Positions 26,340 through 48,159 of a stretch of DNA of 63,488 bases are shown here, one piece after another. Numbering within the stretch: the stretch's first letter is position 1; every line of letters starts with the position of its first letter. The DNA comes from a virus. Under the pieces are notes generated by a model. It was given only the letters and a program-made list of their open reading frames with translations. It was not told the DNA's origin and did not search any database. The stretch is taken from IMG/VR virus record IMGVR_UViG_3300032144_000008, positions 1 to 63,488 of that record. The stretch is one strand, 5' to 3'. Position numbers and translations under genes: made by a program.

Positions 26340-26818
26340 AATACCAAAAGAAGACAAAGCCAGCCTTGTGGGTGTCAGCTTACCCCAAACAAGCCACCGC
26401 GCTTCGTCCAGGGCGAGCCGAGGCTAAAAAGGTTGGCCGTCGCCCCTTCCAGCCTCGAAAACGTCGCCTTGGCCCTGCAAAGCACGGCGCGAGGGCTCCC
26501 CGGACGCTGGTTCAAGTCTTTTTGGCCGAGGAAAAGAAGCTTTACCGGGAGGAAGCCCGGCAATTTGTGGCCGCCACCAATGAAATTGGCCAGTTTTGCC
26601 CCGTCGTTTGGGCGCTGGTGGGGACGCAGGTGCCGGTGGAGGAAATCCACCACATGCGCGGACGGGGTTACGGGGGCCGCAGCCCGTTGCTGAGAGATCA
26701 ACGATTCTGGCTGGCGGTTTCGCATTCGGGGCATCGTTTTTTGCATGAGAACATGGGTGTTGCCAGGGAGCACGGCTGGATCTGTGAAAAAGGTTTGTGG
26801 AATGTTGCCCCAAAATGA
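26336..26818 (+). CDS. basic protein with a possible HNH-like nuclease motif
   Basis: EEIHHMRGRG...LAVSHSGHRFLHEN is only loosely HNH-like. Confidence 0.5.
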   Translation: MKYQKKTKPALWVSAYPKQATALRPGRAEAKKVGRRPFQPRKRRLGPAKHGARAPRTLVQVFLAEEKKLYREEARQFVAATNEIGQFCPVVWALVGTQVPVEEIHHMRGRGYGGRSPLLRDQRFWLAVSHSGHRFLHENMGVAREHGWICEKGLWNVAPK

Positions 26819-27606
26819 GGCGTGCCGTTTACATATACGCGTTGTGCGAGCCTTGTGGAGAGGCGGTTCGTTATGTGGGCCAGAGCACCAAGCCGGCACA
26901 CCGTTACGAGGGACACCTCAAAGAAAAGGCAAGAACTCACAAGGTTCATTGGATTCAGTCTGTGTTGGCCCAAGGTAAAAAGCCAGTTCTGAAAATACTG
27001 GACACAATAAGTGATTGTACCGAAAAACAATGGCAGAAGGCGGAGAGATTTTGGATCAATAAAATGGCGGGCCTTGGTCACAGGCTTACAAATGCAGACC
27101 CAGGCGGGATTGGCACAACGATGAGTTTTGACACCCGGAGAAGAATTGCAGAAACGCTCAAAGGAAGGAAGCGTCCAGAGATCTCCAAGATGTTTACGGG
27201 GAGAAAGGCTTCCTCGTTGGCTAAAAAGAACATGAGCAAGGCTCAAAAGAGAAGGTTTAAGAAATGGAGTTTTTCTTCAGAGGCAATCGAAAGGATAAGG
27301 CTTTCGTCAGCAGGCAGGAAGTTGAGTTCGGAACACAAGGAGAAACTCAGATTGGCAAATGTGGGCAGGGTTGTGTCTTTGGAGACACGAGCAAGATTTA
27401 GTTATTTGGCAAGAAACAGGTCTCCTGAAACTAGGGCCAAAATAAGTTTGGCGAACACAGGCAGAAAATTAACAGAGGAGCACAAAAGGAAAGTGGGGCT
27501 TAGTTTGAAGGGGCATCCTGTTTCTGACAGCACAAGAGAGAAAATAAGGCTGGCGGCCATCAGGCAACATTCTCGTGCAGGGCACAAAATGAAAGTCTTT
27601 CCATGA
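26815..27606 (+). CDS. GIY-YIG homing endonuclease with NUMOD3-like DNA-binding repeats
   Basis: VYIYAL....VRYVGQS..P..R (GIY-YIG). Has repeated x-S/T-x-E-x-R/K-x-K-I/L-S/R-x-A-x-x-G-R/K modules. Visibly more A/T-rich than the flanks. Confidence 0.8.
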   Translation: MRRAVYIYALCEPCGEAVRYVGQSTKPAHRYEGHLKEKARTHKVHWIQSVLAQGKKPVLKILDTISDCTEKQWQKAERFWINKMAGLGHRLTNADPGGIGTTMSFDTRRRIAETLKGRKRPEISKMFTGRKASSLAKKNMSKAQKRRFKKWSFSSEAIERIRLSSAGRKLSSEHKEKLRLANVGRVVSLETRARFSYLARNRSPETRAKISLANTGRKLTEEHKRKVGLSLKGHPVSDSTREKIRLAAIRQHSRAGHKMKVFP

Positions 27607-28712: not shown

Positions 28713-29627
28713 ATGAAACGCAACGTCTCAATTCAAGAATCTCCCTATGGTAGATTGCCTTCCGCGTTGGCGGTGCAAGTGGGCGACATCATTCAGTGCG
28801 ACCTCGGGATGCGGATCGTCACCGAAGTCACCGCCAAGGCCGCCACCGCCATCAAGCTGGTGGGGCTGGACCATCCCAAGGATATCGGTTTAGAAGTCTC
28901 CAAGAGCCGGATCATCGAACGGCGGGGAGCAGACGGATTGAAAGAATTTCTCCTGCGCAAACGCGCCTTGCAGGAGGAGGAACGAAGGTTGGCGCTAAAC
29001 AACCCAAACGAAGAAGAAGTTATGCCAAAAGGAATGGTCAAACTAGAGCCGGGTGACAAGCTGTGCTACGCCGGCAAGTCTCACACCGTAGTAGCCACCA
29101 CCGAACGCCGTGCGTTGATGGAAGACGCCGACGGCAAACAAGTCTGGGACAAGCGGGTAGTGAACGAGTTCATGTTCACCGACTGCACCACGTCCGCCGT
29201 CTACCGGCTCAACGAGCAGGAACGGGTCAAGCACCTGGAAAACTTTCTGGCCGCCCGCAAGCCGTCGAGCAATCAGAAATCAACCCAAACCAACGGCACT
29301 GAGGAAACTGAAATGAAAGCACGAGTGAAAGCGGGCAAGGTGGCCACTCCCAAGAAAACCAAGGCGGCTAAGGTGGCAGCCGCGCCCAAGACAACTGAGG
29401 CCAACGGCGAGAATCTGCTGTTCGGTCATCCTGTATGTGAGGCGTTGCGCGCCGCAGGCAAGGCTGGAGCCACGGTTGAGCAGGCCCAAAAGGTGGTGGA
29501 AAAGTACAAGATCAAGATGCGCAGTTCCGCCACGGTTGAGCGCAACCTGGTTTTTGGCAAGCGGGAGGTCAAGGGTTTGACCATTGCCCCGTTGACCAAG
29601 GCCCAATTGGCTGAGTTTGGCGTATGA
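28713..29627 (+). CDS. hypothetical protein with a Lys/Ala-rich histone-H1-like linker
   Basis: 304 aa. Internal segment KAGKVATPKKTKAAKVAAAPKTTE. Confidence 0.6.
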   Translation: MKRNVSIQESPYGRLPSALAVQVGDIIQCDLGMRIVTEVTAKAATAIKLVGLDHPKDIGLEVSKSRIIERRGADGLKEFLLRKRALQEEERRLALNNPNEEEVMPKGMVKLEPGDKLCYAGKSHTVVATTERRALMEDADGKQVWDKRVVNEFMFTDCTTSAVYRLNEQERVKHLENFLAARKPSSNQKSTQTNGTEETEMKARVKAGKVATPKKTKAAKVAAAPKTTEANGENLLFGHPVCEALRAAGKAGATVEQAQKVVEKYKIKMRSSATVERNLVFGKREVKGLTIAPLTKAQLAEFGV

Positions 29628-30541
29628 ACATTTACGGCGCAGGCATGGCGGGCTTGTTGGTGGCTACGGTGTTGAAGCGATTCAATCCGGTGGTGCACGA
29701 AAAACAAGCCAGTCTGCCCAACAATCACAATGCACTGTTGCGCTTTCGGTCAGACGTTGTCTCTAAGCTGACGGGCATTCCGTTCAGGAAGGTGGCGGTG
29801 GCCAAAGGAGTGGTGTGGGACGGGGAGGTCCGAACCGTTGCCACCATGGCCATGAACAACGCCTATGCCTGGAAGGTGGTTGGCAAAGTGGTGGAGCGGT
29901 CGGTGTTGAACCTGACAGGTGGAGATCGCTACATCGCTCCGCCAGACTTTGTCTCAAGGTTGGCCGAAGGCTTGGCCATTGAGTACAACTCAACTCTGGG
30001 GACCAACATCTTGTTGCGCAACGCGGACAGCGATCCGTTGGTGTCAACAGTGCCCATGCCAGTTTTGATGGGGGTTGCAGGGATTGACAATCGGCCAGAG
30101 TTCCGTTGTCGTCGGGTGTGGACCGCCACTTCAATGTTGAAGGATTGCGATGTGTTCCAGACCTTGTACTACCCAGAGGTGCAACGTCGCTATTACCGGG
30201 CCAGTATCACGGGCAACAAGTTGACGGTTGAGTACATGACCGATCCTGGAGAAACAACCGAAAACGACATCGATGAAGTGATGGATGACTTTGGCATCGA
30301 TCAACAGCCCAAGGTTGAGGTCAAGAGCCAGGAGTATGGCAAGTTGGCTCCATTGGACAACCCGCAAGTGGCACGGCAGTTCATTCTGATGATGACGGAT
30401 CGCTATCGCGTCTACAGCCTGGGACGGTTTGCCACCTGGCGACAGTTGTTGCTTGATGATCTGGTCAAGGACATATCAATCATTGAGCGGTTGGTTGATT
30501 GCAGAGACCGTTACGAAAAGGTTCTGAGAGGAGCAATGTGA
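29624..30541 (+). CDS. FAD/NAD(P)-binding Rossmann-fold protein (UDP-galactopyranose-mutase/amine-oxidase-like)
   Basis: N-terminal dinucleotide-binding motif MNIYGAGMAGL. C-terminal YSLGRFATWRQLLLDDLV resembles the GRL.tY.Y..MD tail of UGM-type flavoenzymes. Confidence 0.7.
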   Translation: MNIYGAGMAGLLVATVLKRFNPVVHEKQASLPNNHNALLRFRSDVVSKLTGIPFRKVAVAKGVVWDGEVRTVATMAMNNAYAWKVVGKVVERSVLNLTGGDRYIAPPDFVSRLAEGLAIEYNSTLGTNILLRNADSDPLVSTVPMPVLMGVAGIDNRPEFRCRRVWTATSMLKDCDVFQTLYYPEVQRRYYRASITGNKLTVEYMTDPGETTENDIDEVMDDFGIDQQPKVEVKSQEYGKLAPLDNPQVARQFILMMTDRYRVYSLGRFATWRQLLLDDLVKDISIIERLVDCRDRYEKVLRGAM

Positions 30542-31299
30542 TGAAAGTTGAATTGATGAGTTGTACCCCCGAGGCTTTAACGCTGCTGTTGAGGACCAAG
30601 GGCACCCGGCTGACGCACGAGGACGATCCGTCTAAGTGGACGCCTGCCAAGCGCCAGGAACACTTGGAATACATGCGCGATACAATCAAGAGCAGCTGGG
30701 AGTTTGTGGACGCGGTTTTCAAGATTGAAGGGGTAACCCGAGCCTTCACCCACCAGATGGTCAGGACCAGAACTGGCTCATATGCCCAGCAGGCCATGCG
30801 GGTGGTGGACGCTCGCAACCAGCCGGTGGAAGTGGCTGCTTCCATTTCTGACGATGAGGTGATGTTGGGCATTTGGGATCGTGGCGTCAAGGCTGCTATG
30901 GAAGCCTATGGCGAGTTGATTGACTTTGGCGCTCCGGCTCAGGATGCTCGTGGCATTTTGCCCACCCACATCACCACCAGCATCATGGCCAAGTTCAACT
31001 TGCGCACGTTGCACGAAATGGCAAAGTTGCGGCTGTGCACTCGGACTCAGGGGGAGTACAACTCGGTGTTTAGGGAGATGCGACGACTGTTAATTGAAGT
31101 CTGGCCTTGGGCAGCGGAGTTCCTGGAAGTCTATTGCGTTGCTCACGGGACTTGTGCCTTCCCTCGGTATGGCAAGTCAGAGTGTCCTATTTATCTTCCG
31201 GAGATGGACAACACGGCTGTGAGGGAAGCGGCAAGGACAAGGTTTTGGTCTGTCAGATACGAAGCTGCACCAATGGCCAAAGACGGAAAAGCAATGTGA
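30541..31299 (+). CDS. thyX: flavin-dependent thymidylate synthase (ThyX)-family protein with a divergent signature
   Basis: EGVTRAFTHQMVRTRTGSYAQQAMR aligns to the ThyX block ..SRa.tHqlvRHR...sqqSqRY. ARGILP and NLRTLHEMAKLR also align. RHR is replaced by RTR and the signature Ser by Ala. Confidence 0.8.
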   Translation: MKVELMSCTPEALTLLLRTKGTRLTHEDDPSKWTPAKRQEHLEYMRDTIKSSWEFVDAVFKIEGVTRAFTHQMVRTRTGSYAQQAMRVVDARNQPVEVAASISDDEVMLGIWDRGVKAAMEAYGELIDFGAPAQDARGILPTHITTSIMAKFNLRTLHEMAKLRLCTRTQGEYNSVFREMRRLLIEVWPWAAEFLEVYCVAHGTCAFPRYGKSECPIYLPEMDNTAVREAARTRFWSVRYEAAPMAKDGKAM

Positions 31300-31300
31300 C

Positions 31301-31909
31301 ATGAAACATTTCGTTTATTTGACTGTCGATCCAGCATCGGGAAGATTTTATTATGGCAAGCACTCCGGGCTTGAGTTCAACCGCAAGTATCAAGGCAGCG
31401 GAGTTTGGGTTAAGCAACAAAGGGCCAAAGGCAGAACGTTGACCACCAAGGTTGTGGCAGAGCTGGTTTCGGAAGCCGATGCATTCAAGATTGAGCGTTG
31501 CTTCATTGCCTTGGCTCGTGCCCGTCCCCTTTGCATGAACTTTGCCGATGGAGGAGAAGGACAAACATCAGAGTTTCTGCGCAAAGTCCTGAATCAACCG
31601 CACATCAAAGCCAAATTGCAGGCTGCATCCCGACGCAGCAGCGGTTGTCGTGGCAAAACTTGGAGGTTGTCCGATTCGTCGAAAGACAACCACAGGACAG
31701 CAACCACTGCTGCATGGAAAGAAGGTAGGATGCAGGGTTCAACGGGATACAGACACAACGAGGATTTCAAAATGAAAATGAGTGCAATGATGAAGAGCAG
31801 GAGCTTGTCTGACGAAACCAGAACAAAGATGTCAATTGCTGCAAAGGCCAGGGCCAAACGTGACGGCAGGATTGGCGTTGGACTTTTCAAAAATGGAAAG
31901 GCAATGTGA
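31301..31909 (+). CDS. GIY-YIG homing endonuclease (free-standing, inserted at the thyX/HAD junction)
   Basis: FVYLTVDPASGRFYYGKHS (GIY-YIG). One NUMOD3-like motif SDETRTKMSIAAKARAK. Flanked by 15-nt direct repeats ggaaa[a/g]gcaatgtga at 31285-99 and 31895-909. Confidence 0.75.
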   Translation: MKHFVYLTVDPASGRFYYGKHSGLEFNRKYQGSGVWVKQQRAKGRTLTTKVVAELVSEADAFKIERCFIALARARPLCMNFADGGEGQTSEFLRKVLNQPHIKAKLQAASRRSSGCRGKTWRLSDSSKDNHRTATTAAWKEGRMQGSTGYRHNEDFKMKMSAMMKSRSLSDETRTKMSIAAKARAKRDGRIGVGLFKNGKAM

Positions 31910-32511
31910 TGCGAGAGAAACCTTGGATTGCGGTGGACTTGGACGGCACGCTGGCCCATTACGATGGGTGGAAGGGAGTCAACCACATCGGGAAGCCAAT
32001 TGCTTATATGGTTGACTTGGTCAAGCATTGGTTGTCAACGGGCAAGACAATAAAGATATTCACGGCTCGTTTGCACGATAACGGCGATCGTAACAAGGTG
32101 ATTGCCCCGATCAAGAAATGGTGCAAGAAACACTTGGGCCAGGAACTGGAAGTCACCAACGTAAAGACCCAAGGGGTGATTGAGTTGTGGGACGACAGAG
32201 CCTTCAATGTGCCCAAGAACGGTGGCATCAATGCAGGGTCGCTGTTGGCGCAAGGGGCAATCACCTATTTCCAGCGTAATGCTTTGTACAAGGACAACTA
32301 CAAGGCATTTGGCAACCTGTTGTTGGCGTTGTTTCCGAACCAAACTCTGCCTGCTATTACCAAGGTCGAAGACGCCTCGCGGTTGAATCTGATCCTGGAT
32401 TGTCTGTGCAAGTTGCAACGCTATGCCTACAACTTTGAGAACGGCGGCCACAAGGATTCGGCGCACGACCTGATGGTTTATGCGGCCATGTTGGAGGAAT
32501 CCACCAAGTGA
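31906..32511 (+). CDS. HAD-superfamily phosphatase fused to a MazG-like/DUF1599-like all-alpha domain
   Basis: IAVDLDGTL (DxDxT) plus a small Rossmannoid core. The C-terminal half YKDNYKAFG...CKLQRYAYNFENGGHKDSAHDLMVYAAML resembles DUF1599. Confidence 0.7.
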   Translation: MMREKPWIAVDLDGTLAHYDGWKGVNHIGKPIAYMVDLVKHWLSTGKTIKIFTARLHDNGDRNKVIAPIKKWCKKHLGQELEVTNVKTQGVIELWDDRAFNVPKNGGINAGSLLAQGAITYFQRNALYKDNYKAFGNLLLALFPNQTLPAITKVEDASRLNLILDCLCKLQRYAYNFENGGHKDSAHDLMVYAAMLEESTK

Positions 32512-33155
32512 AGACAATTGTTTATGGATCCCAAACGTCGTTGGGGCAATTCTATTGCGACCATCACCAAGAGTTGTTTTGCATAGAGGGCACCCCTTTG
32601 GTGGTCGAGATGGCAACTGTCTTGAGGTCTGTTCGCGGGCGTCCAATTCAATTGGTTTGTTTGGATGGCATCAATCATTTGTCAGTGATCGGGGAAACTC
32701 CGGTTGAAGATGCAAGCATTTTGAACCGAAATGTTTTTCTGCCCTACATGCTGGTGAATGAGATGGTTGCCATGGGGCTAGGACCAATGCGTTGTGTGTT
32801 TGTGGTTTCGCAAACGCATCGCATTCCGCAGCGCACCACCTCGCTGTATTGTGCCTCCAAGGCAGCACTGGCGCATTTGATCAAGGTGATGGCTCGGGAG
32901 TTGGCATCCAAGGGGTGGATCATCAACGGGCTGGCACCCGGTAAAATTGTTGACACCAAGATGGCCGAGTTGACCGACCAACAAGTTTTGGAGTTGAGAG
33001 GATGGAACAAGACCGCTGCCGACGCTTATGCCACCAGCAACGTTCCTATGAAGCGATTCACCAACCGGGAAGAGGTTTGTGCTGCAATTGATTGGTTGAT
33101 GGCGGCACCGGATTACGTCAACGGAACGGTTGTTGACATGACAGGAGGCGCATGA
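32508..33155 (+). CDS. short-chain dehydrogenase/reductase (SDR)
   Basis: S-x12-YCASK catalytic motif, APGKIVDTKM, and C-terminal NGTVVDMTGGA. GTG start in a GTGA overlap. Confidence 0.7.
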   Translation: MKTIVYGSQTSLGQFYCDHHQELFCIEGTPLVVEMATVLRSVRGRPIQLVCLDGINHLSVIGETPVEDASILNRNVFLPYMLVNEMVAMGLGPMRCVFVVSQTHRIPQRTTSLYCASKAALAHLIKVMARELASKGWIINGLAPGKIVDTKMAELTDQQVLELRGWNKTAADAYATSNVPMKRFTNREEVCAAIDWLMAAPDYVNGTVVDMTGGA

Positions 33156-36100
33156 GCGATCCATTCGTTCACCTTCACACCCACTGCGAATACAGCTTTC
33201 TCGATGGCTTCGGCCATCCGCACCAGTTTGTCGAACGGGCCAAGACTTTGGGCCAAAAGGCTATTGCCATCACTGATCACGGCAATGTTTCGGCGCACAA
33301 GCGTTGGTACGACGCGTGTGTTGCGGCCGGCATCAAGCCTATTCTGGGGGTGGAGGCTTATGTGGTGGACAATTCCACCAAGCGCGAACAACGACATTCG
33401 TGGCACATTACGCTGTTGGCCAAGACCCTGGAGGGATATCGGAACATTCTCAAGGTTGTCACCCAGTCTTGGGATGGTGGGTTTTATTACAAGCCGAGAA
33501 CTGACTGGGAAATCCTCAAGGCTCATTCCAAGGGGGTGGTTGCCACCTCTGGGTGTCCTGGCGGACGGGTGGGCTATGGAGTGATCAAAGAGGGTTGGTC
33601 CAACAAACAGGTGGCGGCTGAACTCAAACGTCAGGCAGGAATTTTTGAGGATTACTTTGTTGAGGTTTCGCCGTGGCAATACCCAGATGGTGTCAAGGTG
33701 GCGCAGCATGTTTATGATTCGGCTCAGGCGGAAGGTTTACCGCTGGTGTTGACTATGGACGCTCACTACCCGGCTCCGGAGGACGCCCACAAGCAGGACG
33801 TGATGCTGTGCATCCAGAACGACGCCCAGTTCAATGATCCCAATCGGATGCGATTCACCCAGCAGGACTTTTGCATCAACAGTGGTGGGGAAATGGCCCA
33901 GAAGTGGGAGGCTATTCACGGGGTGCGATTGCCGATGTTGGACGAGATGATTTTCAACACCAGGAAAATTGCCGACTCGGTGGGGTTTGACTTTCCGAAT
34001 GCCACCCCGTTGGAATTTCCTCACCAAGGAGACAAGAAGGTCTTGTTGCACCAACTTTGCGAACAAGGATTGAAACGGCGCAAGTTGAAAGGACCGGTTT
34101 ATCGTAAGCGGTTGGACCACGAGTTTGAGTTGGTGTTGTCCAAGAATTTTGTGGACTACTTTTTGATTGTGGCTGACTTGATCGTTTGGGCTAAGGAGCA
34201 TGACATTCTGGTTGGTGCGGCTCGTGGCAGTTCGTGTGGGTCGTTGATGTGTTACTTGTTGCGCATCACAGAAATTGATCCCTTGGTGCACGATCTGATA
34301 TTTGAAAGGTTTATCGATGTCACCCGTAAGGATCTGCCCGACATCGATATTGATTTTGAGGCCGAACGGCGGCACGAGGTGAAGGAATACATGGCAGCCA
34401 AGTATGGCGCTGACAAGGTTGCCAATCTGGCCACTTTCGGAACGTTCAAAGGTCGGTTGTGCCTTCAGGACATCGGTCGGGTGTTTTCGGATCGCATTCC
34501 GGTGCAAGCGGTGGAGGAGGTCAAGCGGTTGATTGTTCAGCGCAGCAGTGCGGACTCGCGAGCCGGGTTCACGATGGAGGACACCTTCGTCAACTTTGAT
34601 CAGGCGGCGGAATGGTTGAAGAAATACCCAGAGTTAGGGCTGGCCAAACATTTGGAAGGCCAGATTCGTCAACTAGGGGTGCATGCAGCCGGGGTGGTGG
34701 TTAGCAACGAGCCCATCAGCAACTTTGCTGCCATGTATGTGACTAAGAACAAGGACCGGGTGATCTCGATGGATTACTCAGATGTCAGTTCTGTAGGATT
34801 GTTGAAGATAGACGTTCTGGGATTGACGGCGCTGACCGTTGCCAAGCGAACACTGGAGTTGATTAAACAGCGTCACAAAAAGGAAATTGATCTGTCTGTT
34901 TTGCCGCTGGATGATGCAGAGGTGTACAAGAATTTCTGTAAGCGTAACCTGCAGGGCATCTTCCAATTTGAAGGGGCGTCCACGCGTCAGGTGTGTCGTC
35001 AGGTGCAACCCGACTCGTTCAAGGAGATCACTGCCGTTAATGCCTTGAGTCGTCCCGGACCACTTCATTCCGGAGGCACCACTAGCTATGTTGCACGTCG
35101 GCAGGGGCACGAGAAAATTGTTCCGCTGCACCCGTTGTTGGAAGAGGTAACTCGGGACACCTATGGAATCACTATTTATCAAGAACAGGTGATGCAAGCG
35201 GTGCGCATCATGGGCAAGTTTGACTGGTCAGGCATCGCCACAGTCCGTAAGATGATGAGTAAGAAATGGGGTGACGAGGCGTTTGCTAAATTACAAGATC
35301 AGTTTGTTGCCGGTGCCACCAGCCAAGGTGTCAAGACCGATGATGCCATTTTGGTTTGGAAGAACATTTGTACATTCGGTTCTTGGGCTTTCAACAAGGC
35401 GCACAGCGTGGCCTATTCGGTGATGGCATATCAGCTGATGTGGCTCAAGACCCATTACACCTCGGAGTTCTACGCCGGGGTGATCAGCTGTGAGGACGAT
35501 GCAGAAAAACAGCGGCGAATGTTTAAGGAGTACAGCTCCACCGGGTTCAAGCTGGCACCGGTTTGCATCAACCAAAGCGGCAAGACCGTTGGTTGTGACC
35601 AAGACGGTTTGCGTTTGGGGATGGACGCCGTGGTTGGGTTGGGAGAAAAGACAACGGACACCATTGTGGCCAATCGTCCGTTCAAAAGTTATCCAGACTT
35701 CACCAAGCGTTGCAAGATTCCCAAGGGCCAAGCCGACAAGTTGCTCAAGATTGGAGCGTTTCGCAATCTAGACTTTGATTTGCTCACCGAACAACAGGAT
35801 CTGTTTGGGGCGCACCTGGCCAAGACCGATACGTTTGATTACCGTCACCCCAGCGAGAAGGACCTGCGTGAGTTTTGTCCGCTACAGGCAGAAGGCAAGA
35901 CCTACATCAAGTGGCGTGAATGGGTGGCCAAGAAGGCAACCGGAAAGCTGTGGCTGATTCGGGATCTGGACGACATTTCCGAGCGCACTGAGATTTTGTT
36001 GATTGGTTGCACCAACCCCAGCACCAGCTTCAACGCCAAGAACAAGCAGGAGGAGAGCGCCAGCCGGGGCAACACCTGGGAGCCCAAGGAGGACGAGCGC

Positions 36101-36403
36101 CACTTGACCAAGGAACAGTACAACTTTCTCAACTTCGACTTTGAGGACGAAACCGACAGCGTGATTGTGCGCGTCAGCTACAAGTTGTATCCGCAGTACA
36201 AGGAATGGATCTGGAACATCAAGGCCGACGACGTGTTGGGGGTGCGCGCCTCGATGAATGGAACGATGCGTATGGCGTTTGCCACCCATGTGGTCAACCT
36301 GACAGAAATGGGCAAGCGCATCCGGGCCAAGCAACCGCTGACTAAAATTGAGCAGGAGTTCTTCAAGGGCCGAGAACGTAAATTCAAAAGGAGATTCGCA
36401 TGA
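33152..36403 (+). CDS. dnaE: DNA polymerase III alpha subunit (DnaE-type, PHP domain intact)
   Basis: FVHLHTHCEYSFLDG...AITDHGNV (PHP). 1083 aa, with polymerase-core motifs such as LKIDVLGLTALT and IYQEQVMQ. Confidence 0.9.
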   Translation: MSDPFVHLHTHCEYSFLDGFGHPHQFVERAKTLGQKAIAITDHGNVSAHKRWYDACVAAGIKPILGVEAYVVDNSTKREQRHSWHITLLAKTLEGYRNILKVVTQSWDGGFYYKPRTDWEILKAHSKGVVATSGCPGGRVGYGVIKEGWSNKQVAAELKRQAGIFEDYFVEVSPWQYPDGVKVAQHVYDSAQAEGLPLVLTMDAHYPAPEDAHKQDVMLCIQNDAQFNDPNRMRFTQQDFCINSGGEMAQKWEAIHGVRLPMLDEMIFNTRKIADSVGFDFPNATPLEFPHQGDKKVLLHQLCEQGLKRRKLKGPVYRKRLDHEFELVLSKNFVDYFLIVADLIVWAKEHDILVGAARGSSCGSLMCYLLRITEIDPLVHDLIFERFIDVTRKDLPDIDIDFEAERRHEVKEYMAAKYGADKVANLATFGTFKGRLCLQDIGRVFSDRIPVQAVEEVKRLIVQRSSADSRAGFTMEDTFVNFDQAAEWLKKYPELGLAKHLEGQIRQLGVHAAGVVVSNEPISNFAAMYVTKNKDRVISMDYSDVSSVGLLKIDVLGLTALTVAKRTLELIKQRHKKEIDLSVLPLDDAEVYKNFCKRNLQGIFQFEGASTRQVCRQVQPDSFKEITAVNALSRPGPLHSGGTTSYVARRQGHEKIVPLHPLLEEVTRDTYGITIYQEQVMQAVRIMGKFDWSGIATVRKMMSKKWGDEAFAKLQDQFVAGATSQGVKTDDAILVWKNICTFGSWAFNKAHSVAYSVMAYQLMWLKTHYTSEFYAGVISCEDDAEKQRRMFKEYSSTGFKLAPVCINQSGKTVGCDQDGLRLGMDAVVGLGEKTTDTIVANRPFKSYPDFTKRCKIPKGQADKLLKIGAFRNLDFDLLTEQQDLFGAHLAKTDTFDYRHPSEKDLREFCPLQAEGKTYIKWREWVAKKATGKLWLIRDLDDISERTEILLIGCTNPSTSFNAKNKQEESASRGNTWEPKEDERHLTKEQYNFLNFDFEDETDSVIVRVSYKLYPQYKEWIWNIKADDVLGVRASMNGTMRMAFATHVVNLTEMGKRIRAKQPLTKIEQEFFKGRERKFKRRFA

Positions 36404-41128: not shown

Positions 41129-41625
41129 GTCTGGCCACCACCAACGGGCACCCCAAGCGCAAAGTCCGCAAAAGCCGAGCCGGCAACAAAAGCAAACTGA
41201 CTGCGGCCTTCATTGGCAGCGTTCAGAAATTGGCTGCCCAAGGACTCAACCAACGTCAAATTGCCACCATCCTCAACGTAGGTGTTTCCACCATAAGCAT
41301 TTGGAAATCCAAGAAGGGCGGCCTAGAGGCAAAATTTCAAAACGCTTTACAAAAGGGTGAGGCGGAAGGCATTCGCAGAAGGCTGGCTCGCATTGAGAAG
41401 GCAGGCATCAAAGGCAGCTGGCAAGCGGACGCCTGGCTGTTGGAACGGCGCAACCCAGACCAATTCGGGCGCAACGATCGGATGCGGGTGAGCGATGTGG
41501 ATGGCAACCCAATTGCTGGCACCACGGTAATTGCTCCCACCGTGGTATTCATCCAGCCCAAGAAGGATGAGTTGAGCGAGCCAATTGAAGTGGGGCAGAT
41601 TGAGAATGGGCACCCGTCGTCATGA
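41125..41625 (+). CDS. terS: terminase small subunit (HTH-containing)
   Basis: GLNQRQIATILNVGVSTISIWK is an HTH. Lies directly upstream of terL and is coupled to it. Confidence 0.6.
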   Translation: MSLATTNGHPKRKVRKSRAGNKSKLTAAFIGSVQKLAAQGLNQRQIATILNVGVSTISIWKSKKGGLEAKFQNALQKGEAEGIRRRLARIEKAGIKGSWQADAWLLERRNPDQFGRNDRMRVSDVDGNPIAGTTVIAPTVVFIQPKKDELSEPIEVGQIENGHPSS

Positions 41626-43079
41626 ACGAGCAGGTCAAATTCACTCCCCAGCCCAAGCAGGCGTTGTTTCTTCAGAGCAATGCTGACATCACCATATTTG
41701 GAGGCGCAGCGGGTGGGGGCAAGACCTGGGGTTTGTTGTATGAGCCGTTGTACCACATCAAGAATGAGAACTTTGGCGGGGTGATCTTTCGGCGCACCTA
41801 TCCCCAGATCACGGTGGAAGGCGGGTTGTGGGACGAGAGCGACCGGCTGTATCCGTTTACGGGCGCTACCTCCACCAAGGGCTCATTACGTTGGGCGTTC
41901 CCCAGTGGCGCAACGATGGTGTTTCGCAGCATGGAGAATGAGGATGACTGTCGCAACTTTGACGGCTCGCAAATTCCTTACATCGGCTTTGATCAGTTGG
42001 AGAGCTTCACGCCCAAGCAGTTTTGGTACATGCTCAGCCGCAACCGTTCTACCTGTGGCATTCGGCCGTACATTCGGGCCAGTTGCAATCCGCAACCGGG
42101 CTGGCTGGCGGATTTGATTCAGTGGTGGTGGGATCCGGAAACGGGCTATGCCATTCCGGAACGCAGCGGGGTGGTGCGCTGGTTTGTGAGAATTGGGGAT
42201 GGCATCCGTTGGTATGCCACCCGTCAGGAGGCAGCCAAGAAACACCCGTCCGTGCCGGCCAAGAGCTTCACCTTTATCTTCAGCAAGCTGGAGGACAACC
42301 AGGTGTTGATGAAGGCAGACCCGGGCTACCTGGCCAACCTGATGGCGTTGCCGTTGGTGGACCGCGAACGGCTGCTGGGTGGCAACTGGAAGATTTCCGT
42401 GGCGGGCAACATCTTTAAACGGGAATGGTGGAAGTTTGTGGACGCGCCACCAGCGGGAATCTACAACTGGTGTCGTTATTGGGACCTGGCCGCCACTGTG
42501 CCGACCGATGGCAAAGAGCCAGACTGGACCGCAGGTGCCAAGCTGGGCGAATTGAACGGGGACATTTACATTGCGGACGTGGTGCACTTCCAAGGCTCAT
42601 CGCTGACCAACGAACGCACCATCAAGGCCACTGCCGAGTTGGACGGGCCAGCCGTGGCGGTGCGCATGGAGCAGGAAGGCGGGGCGAGCGGCAAGAGCCT
42701 GAGTGGAGACGAGGGCCATTACGCTCGTAACATCCTTGTCGGTTACGACTTCTCAGGTGTGCCCAGCAGCAAGAAGAAATTGTTGCGCTGGGCACCATTG
42801 AGCGCAGCGGCGGAAAAGGGCAGGGTGTTCTTGGTCAAAGGTCGTTGGAATCAGGACTTCGTGGATGAGTTGGAAGGCTGCAAGGGAGACGACGAGAAGA
42901 ACGACCAGGCCGACGCTGCTAGCGGGGCACTGGAGGCGTTACGTGTGCCGACCGGAGCTTGGGACGCCCATGCGATTCAAGTCGCCTCCACGGGCTACCA
43001 GCGACCAATGGGCGTGCCGGGCAGCCTTGACCCAACAACGTATGACCCGATGGCGGAAACGGTGGACGCAACGGAGTGA
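41622..43079 (+). CDS. terL: terminase large subunit
   Basis: Walker A FGGAAGGGKTW. 485 aa, with a C-terminal nuclease-like acidic region. ATGA overlap with terS. Confidence 0.9.
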   Translation: MNEQVKFTPQPKQALFLQSNADITIFGGAAGGGKTWGLLYEPLYHIKNENFGGVIFRRTYPQITVEGGLWDESDRLYPFTGATSTKGSLRWAFPSGATMVFRSMENEDDCRNFDGSQIPYIGFDQLESFTPKQFWYMLSRNRSTCGIRPYIRASCNPQPGWLADLIQWWWDPETGYAIPERSGVVRWFVRIGDGIRWYATRQEAAKKHPSVPAKSFTFIFSKLEDNQVLMKADPGYLANLMALPLVDRERLLGGNWKISVAGNIFKREWWKFVDAPPAGIYNWCRYWDLAATVPTDGKEPDWTAGAKLGELNGDIYIADVVHFQGSSLTNERTIKATAELDGPAVAVRMEQEGGASGKSLSGDEGHYARNILVGYDFSGVPSSKKKLLRWAPLSAAAEKGRVFLVKGRWNQDFVDELEGCKGDDEKNDQADAASGALEALRVPTGAWDAHAIQVASTGYQRPMGVPGSLDPTTYDPMAETVDATE

Positions 43080-44196: not shown

Positions 44197-44699
44197 GCTC
44201 ACGAATGAGTTTCTGTTTGGCGGTGGCGCTGATCGTTGCTGCGTTGGTCTGGTTGTTTGCCGAAGCGTTGCACCCCGATCATGTTGTGTTCTCCAATGAC
44301 GGTCCGTTGGGGGCATTGCAATCACAGCAGTCTCAAACCTTTGGCCCAATTTGGGCAGACCTGAATTGGTTGGGGCGCTCTGAGCCAGCTTGGTCGGCTT
44401 CCGGTATCACTGGAGGTTTCCGAGCGTTGATGCTTTGCCGCAACCTAGCAATAGGCACGGTTCTGCTTTGTATGATTGGCTGGCCGTTAGCTTATTGGTG
44501 GACTGGGCGTGGCGTCTTGAAGGGGATTGAGATTGGACTGCTGGCTTGTTGGTGTCAGCTGATTGGCTTCGGCTTGGTCTTGGCCTTGTTGCACTTCCTG
44601 ACCGGCAACCCGGAATATCTCGGCGCGTCCTTCGGCTTGTTGAGCTTTGCATTCATGGTAGGTTTTGGCTTTCTGCCGCCTGCTCCGGATCCTCACTAA
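44193..44699 (+). CDS. four-TM integral membrane protein
   Basis: GTG start in a GTGA overlap (alternative ATG at 44205). Four hydrophobic segments. Confidence 0.55.
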   Translation: MSSRMSFCLAVALIVAALVWLFAEALHPDHVVFSNDGPLGALQSQQSQTFGPIWADLNWLGRSEPAWSASGITGGFRALMLCRNLAIGTVLLCMIGWPLAYWWTGRGVLKGIEIGLLACWCQLIGFGLVLALLHFLTGNPEYLGASFGLLSFAFMVGFGFLPPAPDPH

Positions 44700-44701
44700 T
44701 T

Positions 44702-45724
44702 ATGAAACCACCTATCTCCCTCGTTTTGGCTACGGCTGAGAATTGTCAACTCGGCTGCTCTGGTTGTCCGACCGGTCGTGTCAAAATATGGAATACAAAC
44801 GAAAAGCCCGGCGTGGGCGTCATGTCCCTGGTCATGGCCGACCGCATCATCACCAAGGCCAAGGCCGAGGCGCATGTCTTGAGCGTTTGCACCTATTACT
44901 TCAATGAGGTGCTGATCTATCCGCACATCGTGGAGCTGGTGAAGCTGATCCAGTCCCACGGGTTTTATCAATTCCTCTCGACGAACTTGAACACGTTCAA
45001 GCATGTGCCGGAATTGATGGCCCTTGAACCCACGAACATCATCGTGAGTTTGTCCGGCTGGTCCAATGAGACCTATCAGCGGTACCACGCCGGCGGCGAT
45101 GTGGAGGTGGTGAAGGCGAATATGGTCAAGCTGGCGGCGTTGCGCAAGCCCGGCACGTTCCTGCGGATGAGTTGGCATGACTTTCATTACAACCGCCACG
45201 AACAGGCGCAGGCCAAAGCTTTCGCGGATGAACACGGCTATTGTTTCACGCCCTACGGTGTGGGCGTGTTGCCGTTGGAACGCACGCTGGCACGCTGGCA
45301 GGACGGGCAGCTTGATCCGGCGGAGAAGGACATTCTCGTGCCGTTGCAGGAAGCGAAGAAACTGAGCTGGCCACGAAGGCATTGGAACTGCCAGATGCAG
45401 CAGCAGACCATGACGGTGGACGCGGCGGGCAATGTTTACAACTGCTCGGATCGCTACAACAGCACCAATCTGCGCGGGAGTTTCTTTGAGCGTTCGGTGA
45501 CGGACATCCTCAAGGCGCGCAAGACGGATTTCGATTGCGTTTCCTGCAAGGCGGTGGGTGGGCACATCTACGGCGCGCAGGAATACACCGTGCCGCTGAC
45601 GAGTGTGCGGCGCTGGTTGGACATCCCCTTTCGCGGCCTGAAGCTCCAGGGCCTTTTCCAACGCCTCGATTTCGACGAATGGCGCAATCAGGTTGAGAGC
45701 CATTACGACCGGCCGCAAAAATGA
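44702..45724 (+). CDS. radical SAM enzyme with a SPASM/twitch-like C-terminal Cys cluster
   Basis: CQLGCSGC (CxxxCxxC) at codons 15-22 (nt 44744-44767). C-terminal pattern NCQ...GNVYNCS....CVSC. Confidence 0.8.
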   Translation: MKPPISLVLATAENCQLGCSGCPTGRVKIWNTNEKPGVGVMSLVMADRIITKAKAEAHVLSVCTYYFNEVLIYPHIVELVKLIQSHGFYQFLSTNLNTFKHVPELMALEPTNIIVSLSGWSNETYQRYHAGGDVEVVKANMVKLAALRKPGTFLRMSWHDFHYNRHEQAQAKAFADEHGYCFTPYGVGVLPLERTLARWQDGQLDPAEKDILVPLQEAKKLSWPRRHWNCQMQQQTMTVDAAGNVYNCSDRYNSTNLRGSFFERSVTDILKARKTDFDCVSCKAVGGHIYGAQEYTVPLTSVRRWLDIPFRGLKLQGLFQRLDFDEWRNQVESHYDRPQK

Positions 45725-45939: not shown

Positions 45940-46129
45940 GCTCACCAACTTGCACCCCAGCGGCATGTTGGCCGAGGACGTCAAGTGTCTGGCCAAAGCC
46001 AAACAACGAGCTGAAGAAGTCACCACCGAGGCCATTCAACGATATGAGAAGTGTCACCCGTTGATCAACAAGCCGTTGAAAGATGACTTTGCGAAATGTG
46101 GGGATGGGAGTTTAGTTCAATCAAGTTGA
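45872..46129 (+). CDS. possible small protein, start uncertain (45872 or 45965)
   Basis: Overlaps the previous ORF by 68 nt if started at 45872. Its stop overlaps a TTG at 46126 that is in frame with the portal gene. Confidence 0.3.
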   Translation: MKKRTNKPTFLADENTTQRGSVRLTNLHPSGMLAEDVKCLAKAKQRAEEVTTEAIQRYEKCHPLINKPLKDDFAKCGDGSLVQSS

Positions 46130-48159
46130 GCAACTTGGTTGTCTCCAAATTCGTCCACGAAGCCCGTGCCAAAGCTGCACCGGGCACTTTCCTTTCCCAG
46201 CTGCCAGTGCAGGCGCGTGCGCCTCGCTTGCCGGCTCTCAATGATGTTTCGCTAACGAATATCCTTCCTCCTTTCGGAACCAATCCGCCTCAAGGCCCAA
46301 TTGCCAACAGCGACTTGGACTTGAATGACCGTTACATCCGCAGCGATCCGCGTGAGCTTTGGTATCTCAGCCTGCCCAACAAGCTAACGCCTCAGCAGTG
46401 CCTTCAAATTCTTCGCAGTGCCCTTGGTGGTGACATTTGGCAACAGTGGCAGCTTTGCGCCATCATGCTGGACAGCTGGCCGACGTTCCGAATGGCCAGC
46501 CATCAATTGATGGAGGCAGCGGCTTATGCGCGTTACGCAGTCCACCCCTGTGCCGAGGAAGGCAAGAAACCGACGCCACAAGCGATTGAGCGTGCGGACC
46601 TGGTCAGCCGAGCGATTCGCTCCATGCATCCGGATCCGTTCAATGACGAAAAGGGATTCAGCGGAATGTGCTATGCACTGTGCGACGCGATGCTCAATGG
46701 CGTGTCCACTGTGGAGTTGATTTGGGACTTTCGCACGTCAAGTGATCACGGACGGGAGCGTATGCCCGTTTCCTCAGCCTGGGTTCATCCCCGTCACGTT
46801 TCCTTCACCAACGAAGGCCAGATTGCCGTCTTCAGCGAGAATTACAACCGGCTGACCTATGCGGGTGCTCCGCAATCCACCAAGCCTTCGCCGGACAAAT
46901 TTCTTTGTGCCCAGTTCATGAGCAAGGCCGGGTCTTGCCTTGGTGCCGGGTTCATGCGACCGCTGGTCTGGTATTGGGCCGCCCGCCAGTTCAATCTGGA
47001 ATGGATGCTCAACACCGCCAAGCAATACGGCTCTCCGTTCATCGACATCACCTACAAGCCAGGCAGCGTGAGCACTGGGCCAGGTGGTGAGTTGGAGAAG
47101 CTGAATGAGTTGCTCAAGACGGCCGGAAGCCAACGCAGATTGATTCATCCCGAGGGGACGCTGGCCAACATTCATCCGCCTACCAGTTTGGGCAAGGAGA
47201 ACCCACAACGTGTCCTTGAGGAAAAAGCCGACGAAGCCTGCCTGTTCCTGCTCCTTGGCCAAAAGGGAACCACGACGCCGACGCAAGGGGCGCTCGGTTC
47301 GCAAGACACTCACGAAACGGTCAAGGACGAACGCATTGCCGGTGTCGCCAATTGGTTGGCGCGCAATCCCCTTCGCCAATTTGCCCGTGCTGTCCTGAGG
47401 GTCAACTACGGCAACGACGACGAGTGTCCGAACATTGAGCCCGACTTCACCAAGCCGCTTAAGCCTGAACAAGTGGGCCAAATGATGAGTGCGGTCAGCG
47501 GGTCACGCGTGCCTGTTCGGGCGGACGAGTTCTACAAGAAAGTTGGTTTCACCCAGCCGGAAGCCGGGGAAGTGGTCTTGGCTGGCGGCATCATCGGAGT
47601 TCAAAGCGAGCCGATGACGGACGACGAACGGTTTGATCAACAGCTTGGCCAACAGGTCAAGACGGCGGAAGTGCAAATGGAGTTGGGGGCGGAAATGGAA
47701 CAAGGCCAGTCCGCACAGGCGTCTGAATGGGCAAGGGACAATTTTGTTCGCGCAACAGGAACAAGTGAAGGGGCAGAGAAAGGTTGGACACATCGGGTGC
47801 ACGTTAGAATGACCGACAGGCACGCGGTTGGCTCTAATAGCCGTTCTTATCCCAATCAGGAGATTCGCAAGATCCGGTTGACGGCCACCAGCGACGAAGA
47901 GGCAGAAACCAAGGCTCACAATTTCTACAAGAAGCGACAGTACAAGAATCTGCACACCGTTCACATTGAGAAGAATCCCGGCGTGCAAGCTCGCGGCACC
48001 AAACTACGCGACGTTCTTCACGCCGCTTCCTCCGACGAGCTAGACGCCTTAGAAGCCAAGCTGACCGCTGCTGAGTCAGCGCCCCACAAGAATGGAGAGG
48101 TGGAAGATTTGACCGAAACGATCGTGGGACTGGCCCACCAGAAAAGGTTTGAGCCATGA
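46096..48159 (+). CDS. portal protein (Mu gp29/DUF935-like) with a C-terminal extension
   Basis: LQILRSALGGDIWQQWQLCAIMLDSWPTFRMASHQLMEAAAYARYAV resembles the DUF935 N-terminal block. Large size, and lies upstream of the protease and capsid genes. TTG at 46126 is an alternative start. Confidence 0.75.
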   Translation: MWGWEFSSIKLSNLVVSKFVHEARAKAAPGTFLSQLPVQARAPRLPALNDVSLTNILPPFGTNPPQGPIANSDLDLNDRYIRSDPRELWYLSLPNKLTPQQCLQILRSALGGDIWQQWQLCAIMLDSWPTFRMASHQLMEAAAYARYAVHPCAEEGKKPTPQAIERADLVSRAIRSMHPDPFNDEKGFSGMCYALCDAMLNGVSTVELIWDFRTSSDHGRERMPVSSAWVHPRHVSFTNEGQIAVFSENYNRLTYAGAPQSTKPSPDKFLCAQFMSKAGSCLGAGFMRPLVWYWAARQFNLEWMLNTAKQYGSPFIDITYKPGSVSTGPGGELEKLNELLKTAGSQRRLIHPEGTLANIHPPTSLGKENPQRVLEEKADEACLFLLLGQKGTTTPTQGALGSQDTHETVKDERIAGVANWLARNPLRQFARAVLRVNYGNDDECPNIEPDFTKPLKPEQVGQMMSAVSGSRVPVRADEFYKKVGFTQPEAGEVVLAGGIIGVQSEPMTDDERFDQQLGQQVKTAEVQMELGAEMEQGQSAQASEWARDNFVRATGTSEGAEKGWTHRVHVRMTDRHAVGSNSRSYPNQEIRKIRLTATSDEEAETKAHNFYKKRQYKNLHTVHIEKNPGVQARGTKLRDVLHAASSDELDALEAKLTAAESAPHKNGEVEDLTETIVGLAHQKRFEP

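Follow-up and report, generated by a model that had tools for sequence, protein, structure and literature searches.

A ThyX-centred gene module beside dnaE in a soil-metagenome phage and its possible part in thymidine hypermodification

ORGANIZATION OF THE LOCUS

The stretch of DNA considered here, which we call the window, comprises 63,488 nucleotides (nt) of a phage from a soil metagenome (IMG/VR record IMGVR_UViG_3300032144_000008), and it contains a packed group of genes centred on the thymidylate synthase ThyX. According to the list of open reading frames (ORFs), six genes lie on the + strand in the order g0, g1, thyX, a homing endonuclease gene, g4 and a gene for a short-chain dehydrogenase/reductase (SDR), with dnaE following as the next gene, the whole extending from 28713 to 36403 (Table 1). 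Neighbouring genes either overlap by 1–4 nt, in the form of ATGA (as between the stop of g0 and the start of g1), TGATG or GTGA, or are separated by a 1-nt spacer, and a scan of the locus found promoter-like and terminator-like sites in counts not above those of shuffled sequence. Because every junction overlaps or has a 1-nt spacer and because promoters and terminators are not in excess, the genes from g0 to dnaE read as a single translationally coupled unit within the replication module. An original prediction, made by a model from the letters of the window, had described five coupled genes, g1 to the SDR gene, directly 5′ of dnaE; all five were found at the predicted coordinates, on the + strand and with junctions that overlap or lie 1 nt apart. 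Since the synthesis of dTMP needs ThyX alone, and many phages manage with it alone, obligatory partners of ThyX call for an explanation. Here, we describe the proteins of this module, their distribution among phages and a possible role of the module in DNA modification.

Table 1. Genes and domains from g0 to dnaE in the window
Feature	Position	Strand	Remarks
g0, 304 aa	28713..29627	+	no Pfam or PHROG match; conserved place upstream of g1 (PB1 gp69, F8 ORF066)
g1, 305-aa FAD-type Rossmann flavoprotein	29624..30541	+	UDP-galactopyranose-mutase/renalase-like fold; phage-specific family phrog_4828 (E 2e-70)
Divergent ThyX, 252 aa	30541..31299	+	true start is the ATG at 30541; Pfam Thy1 (PF02511)
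GIY-YIG homing endonuclease	31301..31909	+	phrog_314 (E 1.4e-18); insertion exactly between ThyX and g4
g4, 200 aa	31909..32511	+	true start is the ATG at 31909; two-domain fusion (residues 1–108 and 109–200)
g4 N-terminal domain, cap-less HAD phosphatase	31909..32232	+	DxDxT at D11/D13, T53, DD96-97
g4 C-terminal domain of four helices, nearest to DUF6378 and akin to DUF1599	32233..32511	+	PF19905 in relatives
Short classical SDR, 215 aa	32508..33155	+	Pfam adh_short 42.6 bits against a cut-off of 26.6; phrog_3142
DnaE-type DNA polymerase III alpha subunit	33152..36403	+	constant downstream neighbour of the module

A DIVERGENT ThyX

The window ThyX scores 108.8 bits with the Pfam Thy1 profile, for which the gathering score is 24.8, and 81.6 bits with the NCBIfam equivalog TIGR02170, which is under the cut-off of 87.9; in a sequence search it aligns with the ThyX structures of Mycobacterium tuberculosis and Thermotoga maritima. 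An alignment of 55 distinct sequences of its clade with M. tuberculosis ThyX reveals that the residues at the canonical His, Glu, Ser and Tyr positions have been exchanged in 92% or more of its members. With T. maritima numbering, presumably, Phe stands in place of His53, Thr in place of the His in RHR, Gln in place of Glu86, Ala in place of Ser88 and Val in place of Tyr91. All five nucleotide-binding arginines, R75, R77, R87, R137 and R164, are retained in the window protein; we take them to be R78, R80, R90, R147 and R174 of T. maritima. The ThyX signature RHRxxSxxxxSxR reads RTRTGSYAQQAMR in the window, with both arginines, the first Ser and the last Arg retained, and its His and second Ser are likewise substituted in at least 92% of the clade. 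The original prediction had called this protein a divergent ThyX, a description that suits a Thy1 score of this size together with a TIGR02170 score below the cut-off and clade-wide substitutions at canonical positions.

Compared with the characterised enzymes of T. maritima (TM0449) and M. tuberculosis (Rv2754c), the clade shares the fold family as judged by sequence (109 bits), the dUMP-binding arginines and a Q..E pair in the last helix, whereas it differs in the substitutions, in falling below the TIGR02170 cut-off, in a C-terminal extension and in always being paired with g1. The extension comprises about 55 residues with conserved cysteines and reads CVAxGxCAFPRYGxxxCPxYxPxMD at 31130–31220 of the window (residues ~197–226). 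Its cysteine-containing form is present in the phages PB1, WTB, WR01 and Bas98 and absent from the versions of Rhizobium phage TM30 and of the lineage L004, and the extension may serve in metal binding or redox chemistry. As every dUMP-binding arginine is retained, clade ThyX is predicted to put a one-carbon unit on C5 of dUMP.

What, then, would the partners of such an enzyme do? One explanation is plain precursor supply: ThyX would be an ordinary dTMP synthase for rapid replication, and the accessory proteins would condition nucleotide pools or serve ThyX, the DNA being canonical or modified by other genes. A ThyX far above the Pfam threshold with its five nucleotide-binding arginines agrees with this, as does the position of the block inside the replication module, directly 5′ of DnaE. 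Precursor supply is the main rival of the hypermodification reading considered below, and a serious one, although on balance we consider it somewhat unlikely.

g1, A FLAVOPROTEIN RESEMBLING UDP-GALACTOPYRANOSE MUTASE

The product of g1 had been predicted to be a Rossmann protein of about 300 amino acids (aa) that binds flavin adenine dinucleotide (FAD) and carries a C-terminal motif like that of UDP-galactopyranose mutase (UGM). This is borne out, at the fold level only, by an AlphaFold (AF2) model and a Foldseek search. The N-terminal GxGxxG motif is IYGAGMAGL and the C-terminal motif is GRFATWRQLLLDD, and there are no Pfam or NCBIfam matches even at E<=10, GLF (PF03275) and NAD_binding_8 included. 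The AF2 model, with 46 homologues in the alignment, has a predicted local distance difference test score (pLDDT) of 93, and its top match in the PDB is UGM (E 3e-10, probability 1.0, TMq 0.6–0.68, root-mean-square deviation 5–7 Å), followed by renalase and protoporphyrinogen-oxidase-like flavoproteins. The likeness to UGM is confined to the fold, with an identity of 10–16% and a g1 protein about 70 residues shorter than bacterial UGM. Shared with UGM and the renalase/protoporphyrinogen-oxidase fold are the GxGxxG FAD Rossmann motif, a conserved His shortly after strand 2 and a C-terminal GR...W/Y..L.DD motif. In contrast, the Pfam GLF profile fails on g1, which by sequence is not a member of the Glf family. 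Three other identities that were considered are disfavoured as leading ideas. The folds of a TrmFO-like folate/FAD methylase, of a sarcosine-oxidase-like generator of methylenetetrahydrofolate (CH2-THF) and of a group-A flavin monooxygenase are outranked by UGM and renalase, with monooxygenases matching only at TMq 0.4–0.5.

The homologues of g1 (n=2572) have a uniform length of about 300–330 aa. An exhaustive profile search of 1.84 billion representatives returned 1187 clusters at 50% identity, 1030 of them below 1e-10, with about 150 weak matches (E between 1e-10 and 1e-3) beyond the core family. Because 1030 of the 1187 clusters score below 1e-10, the family appears to be closed and well separated from cellular UGMs. 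In one relative, a YfbR-like HD 5′-deoxynucleotidase is naturally fused to g1 in a gene adjoining ThyX, a fusion that would tie g1 to deoxynucleotide chemistry.

If the module served precursor supply, the task of g1, as an NAD(P)H-dependent flavoprotein, would be to maintain the ThyX flavin in its reduced state. An NAD(P)H-bound fungal UGM is indeed found among the best-TM matches of g1, and an NADH-bound renalase is among the top matches. However, ThyX enzymes oxidise NADPH themselves. In addition, many phages, such as those of Gordonia, Mycobacterium, Microbacterium and Bacillus, use ThyX without a g1-like partner, so that an obligatory partner would be odd for a plain synthase.

g4, A HAD PHOSPHATASE FUSED TO A HELICAL DOMAIN

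The N-terminal half of g4 has the hallmarks of the haloacid dehalogenase (HAD) superfamily: D11, D13, T15, T53 and D96-D97 are invariant or nearly so in an alignment of 30 sequences. This domain, which matches phrog_1238 and phrog_415, is modelled by AF2 with a pLDDT of 84–98 over residues 1–95, and its Foldseek matches are BT_0820, AfhF of phage HY126 (annotated as D-arabinose 1,5-diphosphate phosphatase), the phosphatase of T4 Pnkp and GmhB. Most relatives of the module have a HAD domain of the PF25109 'PNKP phosphatase' type in place of the short type of the window. The HAD subtype has been exchanged between lineages while the partnership with the helical domain was retained. T4 Pnkp shares with g4 the cap-less DxDxT type of HAD domain, and relatives match PF25109; unlike Pnkp, the module proteins examined have no P-loop kinase domain, and the HAD domain is fused to DUF6378 instead. 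The label 'polynucleotide kinase/phosphorylase' given to the PB1-type protein is unjustified, as that protein has no kinase domain.

The C-terminal half is best assigned through its relatives, in many of which it is a separate gene of about 96 aa. PF19905 (DUF6378) matches eight of 11 family members (best E 9.2e-7) and the window copy weakly (E 0.18), and many stand-alone homologues have a precomputed PF19905 match. With PF07659 (DUF1599) neither the window domain nor the 11 relatives give a match at E<=1, whereas a control DUF1599 protein does (E 4.6e-8). Profile–profile comparison nevertheless points to kinship: hhalign of the helical domain against an alignment of seven bona fide DUF1599 proteins gives a probability of 84.7% and an E of 6.7e-6 over 68 columns, with the motifs [KR]N..Y, K..R and [DE]S..D...Y in register, and a DUF1599 hidden Markov model (HMM) built in this work cross-matches stand-alone orthologues (E 1.6e-5 and 3.6e-6). 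In the lineage L004, moreover, a DUF1599-type protein occupies the slot of the helical domain. DUF1599 (PF07659) is also named 'nucleotide modification associated domain 1' (Nmad1).

The original prediction had described g4 as a HAD phosphatase fused to a MazG-like/DUF1599-like domain. Of this, the fusion with a HAD domain stands and the DUF1599 kinship is supported by profile comparison, the nearest Pfam family being DUF6378; the MazG-like label is without support. Searches of PDB sequences gave only POU-domain matches for the helical-domain profile (E 0.0055) and only LacI-headpiece and AF_0060 matches for the DUF1599 profile (E 0.025–0.79), all of which we read as chance. Only two acidic residues, D73 and D77, are conserved in the helical domain (the MazG metal motifs are EExxE/ExxD). 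Foldseek searches of PDB and BFVD with the g4 model, in which the helical domain has a pLDDT of 51–84, returned matches of the HAD domain only. No functional study of DUF6378, DUF1599 or Nmad1, or of ThyX with UGM in a phage, was found in the literature.

For precursor supply, the HAD domain would be a nucleotide phosphatase and the DUF6378/DUF1599 domain a partner that handles dUTP or dNTPs or that is regulatory. The authors of a study of Asgard viruses did read a dUTPase-ThyX-DUF1599 array as an operon for making dTMP from dUTP (bioRxiv 10.1101/2021.07.29.453957). Nevertheless, a phosphatase acting on dNMPs would counteract supply, and none of the tests revealed MazG-like or dUTPase-like features in the helical domain.

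The HAD domain also suggests an explanation of another kind, in which the module is an assortment of genes united only by descent. The HAD protein would be a PNKP-type DNA 3′-phosphatase for end repair, the SDR and g1 would be unrelated auxiliary metabolic genes, and the order would owe its conservation solely to joint inheritance of the entire early region with the replicase. The PF25109 type of HAD domain in most relatives speaks for this, as do repair genes in the relatives' block, which encode DenV/Pyr_excise and an RNase T-like exonuclease. On the other hand, the HAD subtype was swapped without loss of its fusion to the helical domain, and we regard common descent of unrelated genes as improbable, for further reasons that emerge from the distribution of the module.

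THE SDR AND THE HOMING ENDONUCLEASE

The short SDR of the original prediction is present as predicted, with 215 aa and an adh_short score of 42.6 bits. Its catalytic tetrad Asn-Ser-Tyr-Lys is intact, N75, S101, Y114 and K118 being conserved in 22 family members with the YxxxK motif present. The glycine motif is degenerate: it is YGSQTSLG in the window and in the relative L007, whereas distant relatives keep TGxxxGLG.

An SDR beside ThyX raises the possibility of cofactor recycling, in which the SDR would reduce pterins or folates like FolM/PTR1 and g1 would recycle flavin, making thymidylate synthesis independent of host cofactor pools. This idea, one of the two offered by the original prediction, is a special case of precursor supply, and the confidences given to the two overlap. 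The intact tetrad and the flavoprotein nature of g1 are in line with it, and a pteridine reductase is among the many weak NCBIfam matches of the SDR. The score with that model (NF006598) is, however, 48 bits against a cut-off of 288, which is less than the SDR scores with several FabG and acetoin-reductase models. The ThyX reaction releases tetrahydrofolate instead of dihydrofolate, so that no reductase is needed. Furthermore, fewer than half of the module-bearing lineages have the SDR, and PB1, F8 and 14-1 lack it in this block. The FolM/PTR1 assignment thus finds no support in these data, and we judge cofactor recycling very improbable.

The homing endonuclease between thyX and g4 is an insertion, as had been predicted. 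The closest relative, L100 (75% nt identity), lacks positions 31300–31894 of the window, and its ThyX stop overlaps the g4 start directly; L007 lacks the gene too, and the flanks are conserved in both. Pfam GIY-YIG gives no match for this copy. A repeat of about 15 nt, GGAAA[A/G]GCAATGTGA, occurs at both ends of the insertion, and owing to this repeat the stop/start overlap with g4 is preserved. The sequence GCAATGTGA(TG) recurs at three junctions, g1/ThyX (30530–30545), ThyX/endonuclease (31288–31303) and endonuclease/g4 (31897–31912), and the proteins encoded 5′ of them end in GAM*, GKAM* and GKAM*, respectively. The copies at the ends of thyX and of the endonuclease gene are attributable to duplication by the insertion. 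A second homing endonuclease of 269 aa is encoded at 26797–27606 (+), within the replication gene region 2 kb 5′ of the module (NUMOD3 33 bits, GIY-YIG 20.5 bits, phrog_314 E 1.9e-22).

DISTRIBUTION OF THE MODULE

Co-occurrence was assessed in 80 IMG/VR viral contigs encoding g1 homologues, scanned with HMMs built in this work. ThyX lies directly downstream of g1 in 78 of them, often overlapping it, and the other two contigs end there. By rough counts, about 64 of the 80 loci have the HAD domain, about 65 have the helical domain and about 30 have the SDR; many lineages have these three as separate genes, and g1 and ThyX overlap in most lineages. Among GenBank phages, g1 is found in 362 records and full-length clade ThyX in 351, with identical counts of the two in Pseudomonas (292/292), Escherichia (27/27) and Serratia (9/9) phages. 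ThyX-bearing phages of Actinobacteria, Firmicutes and Archaea give weaker, partial matches to clade ThyX, and none of their genera appears in the list for g1.

The common order, seen in PB1, Burkholderia phage WTB, Serratia phage WR01 and Escherichia phage Bas98, is Dda helicase, g0, g1, small ORFs, ThyX, HAD and helical domain, an optional SDR, an exonuclease and DnaE; Wifceviruses have g1-ThyX-HAD/helical domain-SDR. In most related loci with enough flanking sequence, Pfam labels place DnaE 3′ of the module. Carriers include Pbunavirus (gp68, gp61 and gp59 in PB1), Wifcevirus, Myosmarvirus, a 42-kb podovirus and a 207-kb jumbo Rhizobium phage, in which the module is spread over 7 kb and adjoins dUTPase and ribonucleotide reductase (RNR) genes. 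Among the cultured carriers are Wifcevirus Bas98-101, Serratia MyoSmar, Xanthomonas Carpasina, Cronobacter Ss1 and Rhizobium RHph_TM30, and in F8 or 14-1 the orthologues of g1, ThyX and HAD-DUF6378 are ORF065, ORF059 and ORF057, respectively. Altogether, the module appears to be conserved in more than 1000 phage lineages from soil, water and gut metagenomes. Near-perfect co-occurrence (78 of 80 loci, 362 against 351 GenBank records) and translational coupling across these lineages support the idea in the original prediction of a functional association between ThyX and its accessory genes.

This distribution bears on whether the genes share only descent. Nearly all sampled loci fall into one DnaE-carrying supergroup, as expected of an inherited block. 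Yet the association persists through large rearrangements and through morphotypes as different as the jumbo Rhizobium phage, a podovirus and a myovirus, and the g1/ThyX overlap is kept in most lineages. DUF1599, too, recurs beside ThyX in unrelated viruses: a crAss-like phage has DUF1599, two PNK-like genes and ThyX a few genes further on, and Asgard wyrdviruses have dUTPase-ThyX-DUF1599 (bioRxiv 10.1101/2021.07.29.453957).

Relatives carry further genes within the module: one for a Mom-family protein, one for a pyrimidine-dimer glycosylase (DenV/Pyr_excise) that lies between ThyX and the HAD gene, and one, behind the SDR, for a glyoxalase/VOC-family protein (insertions at 6846–7415 in L004, at 5157–5522 and 6971–7438 in L087 and at 11489–12019 in L003).

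MODIFIED THYMIDINE IN RELATIVES AND A POSSIBLE ROLE OF THE MODULE

Two carriers of the module have modified DNA. In the Pbunaviruses F8 and 14-1, about a quarter of T, in a TG context, has given way to new nucleosides derived from thymidine, with masses of 362 and 390 Da, which the authors read as derivatives of a tetrose sugar alcohol and of a cyclic aldopentose (Yee et al., bioRxiv 2025, PMC12191111). F8 DNA is cut by EcoRI, HindIII, XbaI, DraI and BsaI and left uncut by five enzymes with TG-containing sites, and the hypermodified thymine of Pbunavirus triggers END nucleases (PMC12191111). The preprint names no biosynthetic genes and presents Pbunavirus as an example without genes previously implicated in modification (PMC12191111). 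By arithmetic, the two masses equal 5-hydroxymethyldeoxyuridine (5-hmdU) plus a tetritol minus H2O and 5-hmdU plus a pentose minus H2O, and the sole recognised pyrimidine-C5 enzyme in the inspected stretches of PB1, F8 and 14-1 is ThyX. Wifceviruses, which also carry the module, resist all tested restriction systems except EcoP1_I and have no known means of protection (PMC11990801).

We tentatively regard the module as a conserved, co-translated set for nucleotide modification and precursor supply that accompanies the DnaE replicase in the PB1-like supergroup. In the reading that we rank as most likely, although with a little less than an even chance, it would provide the nucleotide-level and sugar-level steps, if not more, of a thymidine hypermodification, by analogy with F8 and 14-1. 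In this scheme, ThyX with its altered residues would release or hand on a C5-hydroxymethyl or C5-methylene product, besides or instead of dTMP. The proteins g1, HAD and SDR would prepare a sugar or sugar-alcohol donor, g1 by mutase-like or redox flavin chemistry, HAD by dephosphorylation of a sugar phosphate and SDR by reduction of a carbonyl; attachment to DNA at TG would be left to enzymes encoded elsewhere. The three fit sugar chemistry because UGM is the top match of g1, because the HAD domain matches sugar-bisphosphate phosphatases and because the SDR tetrad is intact. A more specific version holds that clade ThyX together with g1 is a flavin-dependent dUMP C5-hydroxymethylase or C5-methylene transferase, not (only) a thymidylate synthase, which with the HAD domain, the Nmad1-like domain and the SDR makes the decorated thymidine of Pbunavirus; in this specific form the claim is unlikely.

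Several points weigh against a role in hypermodification. First, the link between module and modification is one that we infer, and the window phage comes from a soil metagenome, modification of its DNA being proposed by analogy with F8 and 14-1. Second, about 75% of T is canonical in those two phages (PMC12191111); because of this a plain thymidylate synthase is needed anyway, which also favours precursor supply. Third, the TG specificity implies an enzyme acting on DNA, and none is recognisable in the module, nor did scans of about 45 ORFs of the window with Pfam, PHROGs or NCBIfam detect a 5-HMU DNA kinase, an aGPT-Pplase or a glycosyltransferase; a ThyA-type dUMP hydroxymethylase was likewise not detected. 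Fourth, the SDR is absent from the block of PB1, F8 and 14-1. Fifth, most of the 80 loci represent one broad viral lineage, and shared descent inflates the co-occurrence. Finally, the module proteins of F8 and 14-1 are nearly identical (g1 97%, ThyX 94%, HAD-helical protein 81%), no module gene tracks the difference between the two modifications, and for this reason the sugar-specific step must lie elsewhere. The alternative offered by the original prediction, a pathway to a non-canonical pyrimidine nucleotide, has circumstantial evidence in its favour, in that Pbunaviruses carry both the module and hypermodified thymidine, and against it the failure to detect known hypermodification genes in the window.

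When 14-1 and F8 are compared over their 16-kb replication region, a single protein diverges strongly, and it lies outside the module. It is 14-1 ORF70/F8 ORF070 (11997–13301 in L102 and 11894–13090 in L103, respectively), with 57% identity, a Cys-rich protein in which a coiled-coil middle part has been swapped.

COMPARISON WITH KNOWN MODIFICATION SYSTEMS

The thymidine hypermodification pathways of SP10, phiW-14, ViI and M6 start with a ThyA-type dUMP hydroxymethylase and use 5-HMU DNA kinase and aGPT-Pplase (Lee et al., 2018, PMC5889632). Several features are shared with them: the end product in the relatives fits, by mass, a partially substituted thymidine derived from 5-hmdU; the genes lie in an early region of replication and nucleotide metabolism; and a domain of the 'nucleotide modification associated' type is present. 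They differ in that the C5 enzyme is ThyA-type in those pathways and ThyX-type here, and in that the appended group is an amine there and a sugar or sugar alcohol in the relatives that carry the module. Because the C5 enzyme is of the ThyX type and the defining kinase and pyrophosphorylase were not detected, the module does not appear to be a member of these pathways.

The sugar-decorated pyrimidines of T-even-like phages, namely glucosyl-5-hydroxymethylcytosine (hmC) in T4 and arabinosyl-hmC/5-hydroxycytosine (5hoC) in RB69, DLP3 and HY126, provide a second comparison. Both systems combine a pyrimidine-C5 enzyme with sugar-activating enzymes, assigned to the module by prediction, and both have a small HAD phosphatase, that of the module resembling AfhF of HY126. 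In the T-even-like systems, however, the modified base is cytosine, which is fully replaced, the C5 enzyme is ThyA-type, and glycosyltransferases are recognisable, whereas none is found among the window ORFs scanned.

If the more specific version were true, clade ThyX would be the first ThyX-type entry into DNA hypermodification, in a pathway sharing no component with the ThyA/5-HMUDK/aGPT-Pplase route. If the proposed role holds more generally, it would disclose a ThyX-based way to modified DNA, with hypermodification built from other parts than those of known pathways. It would also provide a function for the large orphan flavoprotein family phrog_4828 and for DUF6378/DUF1599, account for the restriction resistance of Wifcevirus and yield a genomic marker that predicts hypermodified phage genomes. 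Pbunaviruses are among the most-used phages for the therapy of Pseudomonas aeruginosa infection, and the present analysis points to PB1 gp68, gp61 and gp59 as candidate genes for their modification, with the SDR and glyoxalase-like neighbours as candidates in other lineages. Should the link not hold, a ThyX clade with an obligatory UGM-like partner would still be a piece of nucleotide enzymology in need of explanation.

NEIGHBOURING GENES AND OTHER FEATURES OF THE WINDOW

The module is flanked on its 5′ side by genes for a helicase, an O-like initiator and a primase-helicase and on its 3′ side by a gene for a 3′-5′ exonuclease-like protein. An HMM of g0 built in this work detects g0 in PB1, WTB, WR01, Bas98 and L100. 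Its central linker is rich in Lys, Ala and Pro and histone-H1-like (KAGKVATPKKTKAAKVAAAPK), and the sequence diverges fast, the position being constant in PB1-like phages.

At the DNA level, a search of a phage collection gave short matches to thyX at 66–71% identity and nothing longer; since only such segments match, the window phage is without a close cultured relative. When sequencing runs were sought for basecalling anomalies, the window sequence was present solely in contigs of a 2019 soil metagenome and in a wastewater RNA run.

Beyond the replication region, the window encodes a terminase, a Mu-like portal and a giant fibre-like protein. A radical SAM protein (44546–45724, +; Radical_SAM E 3.9e-8) with a possible SPASM domain and no match to a specific NCBIfam subfamily is encoded between the terminase (41622–43079) and the portal (46096–48159), and in the crAss-like phage L094 a radical SAM gene stands between the DUF1599 and ThyX genes. 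A 406-aa fusion of a NUDIX hydrolase (E 1.8e-15) with a Mu F-like head-morphogenesis domain (53746–54966, +) looks like a virion-associated nucleotide pyrophosphatase. The giant ORF of 2726 aa at 981–9161 (+) has a weak match to YadA-head repeats and probably encodes a fibre or adhesin-like structural protein.

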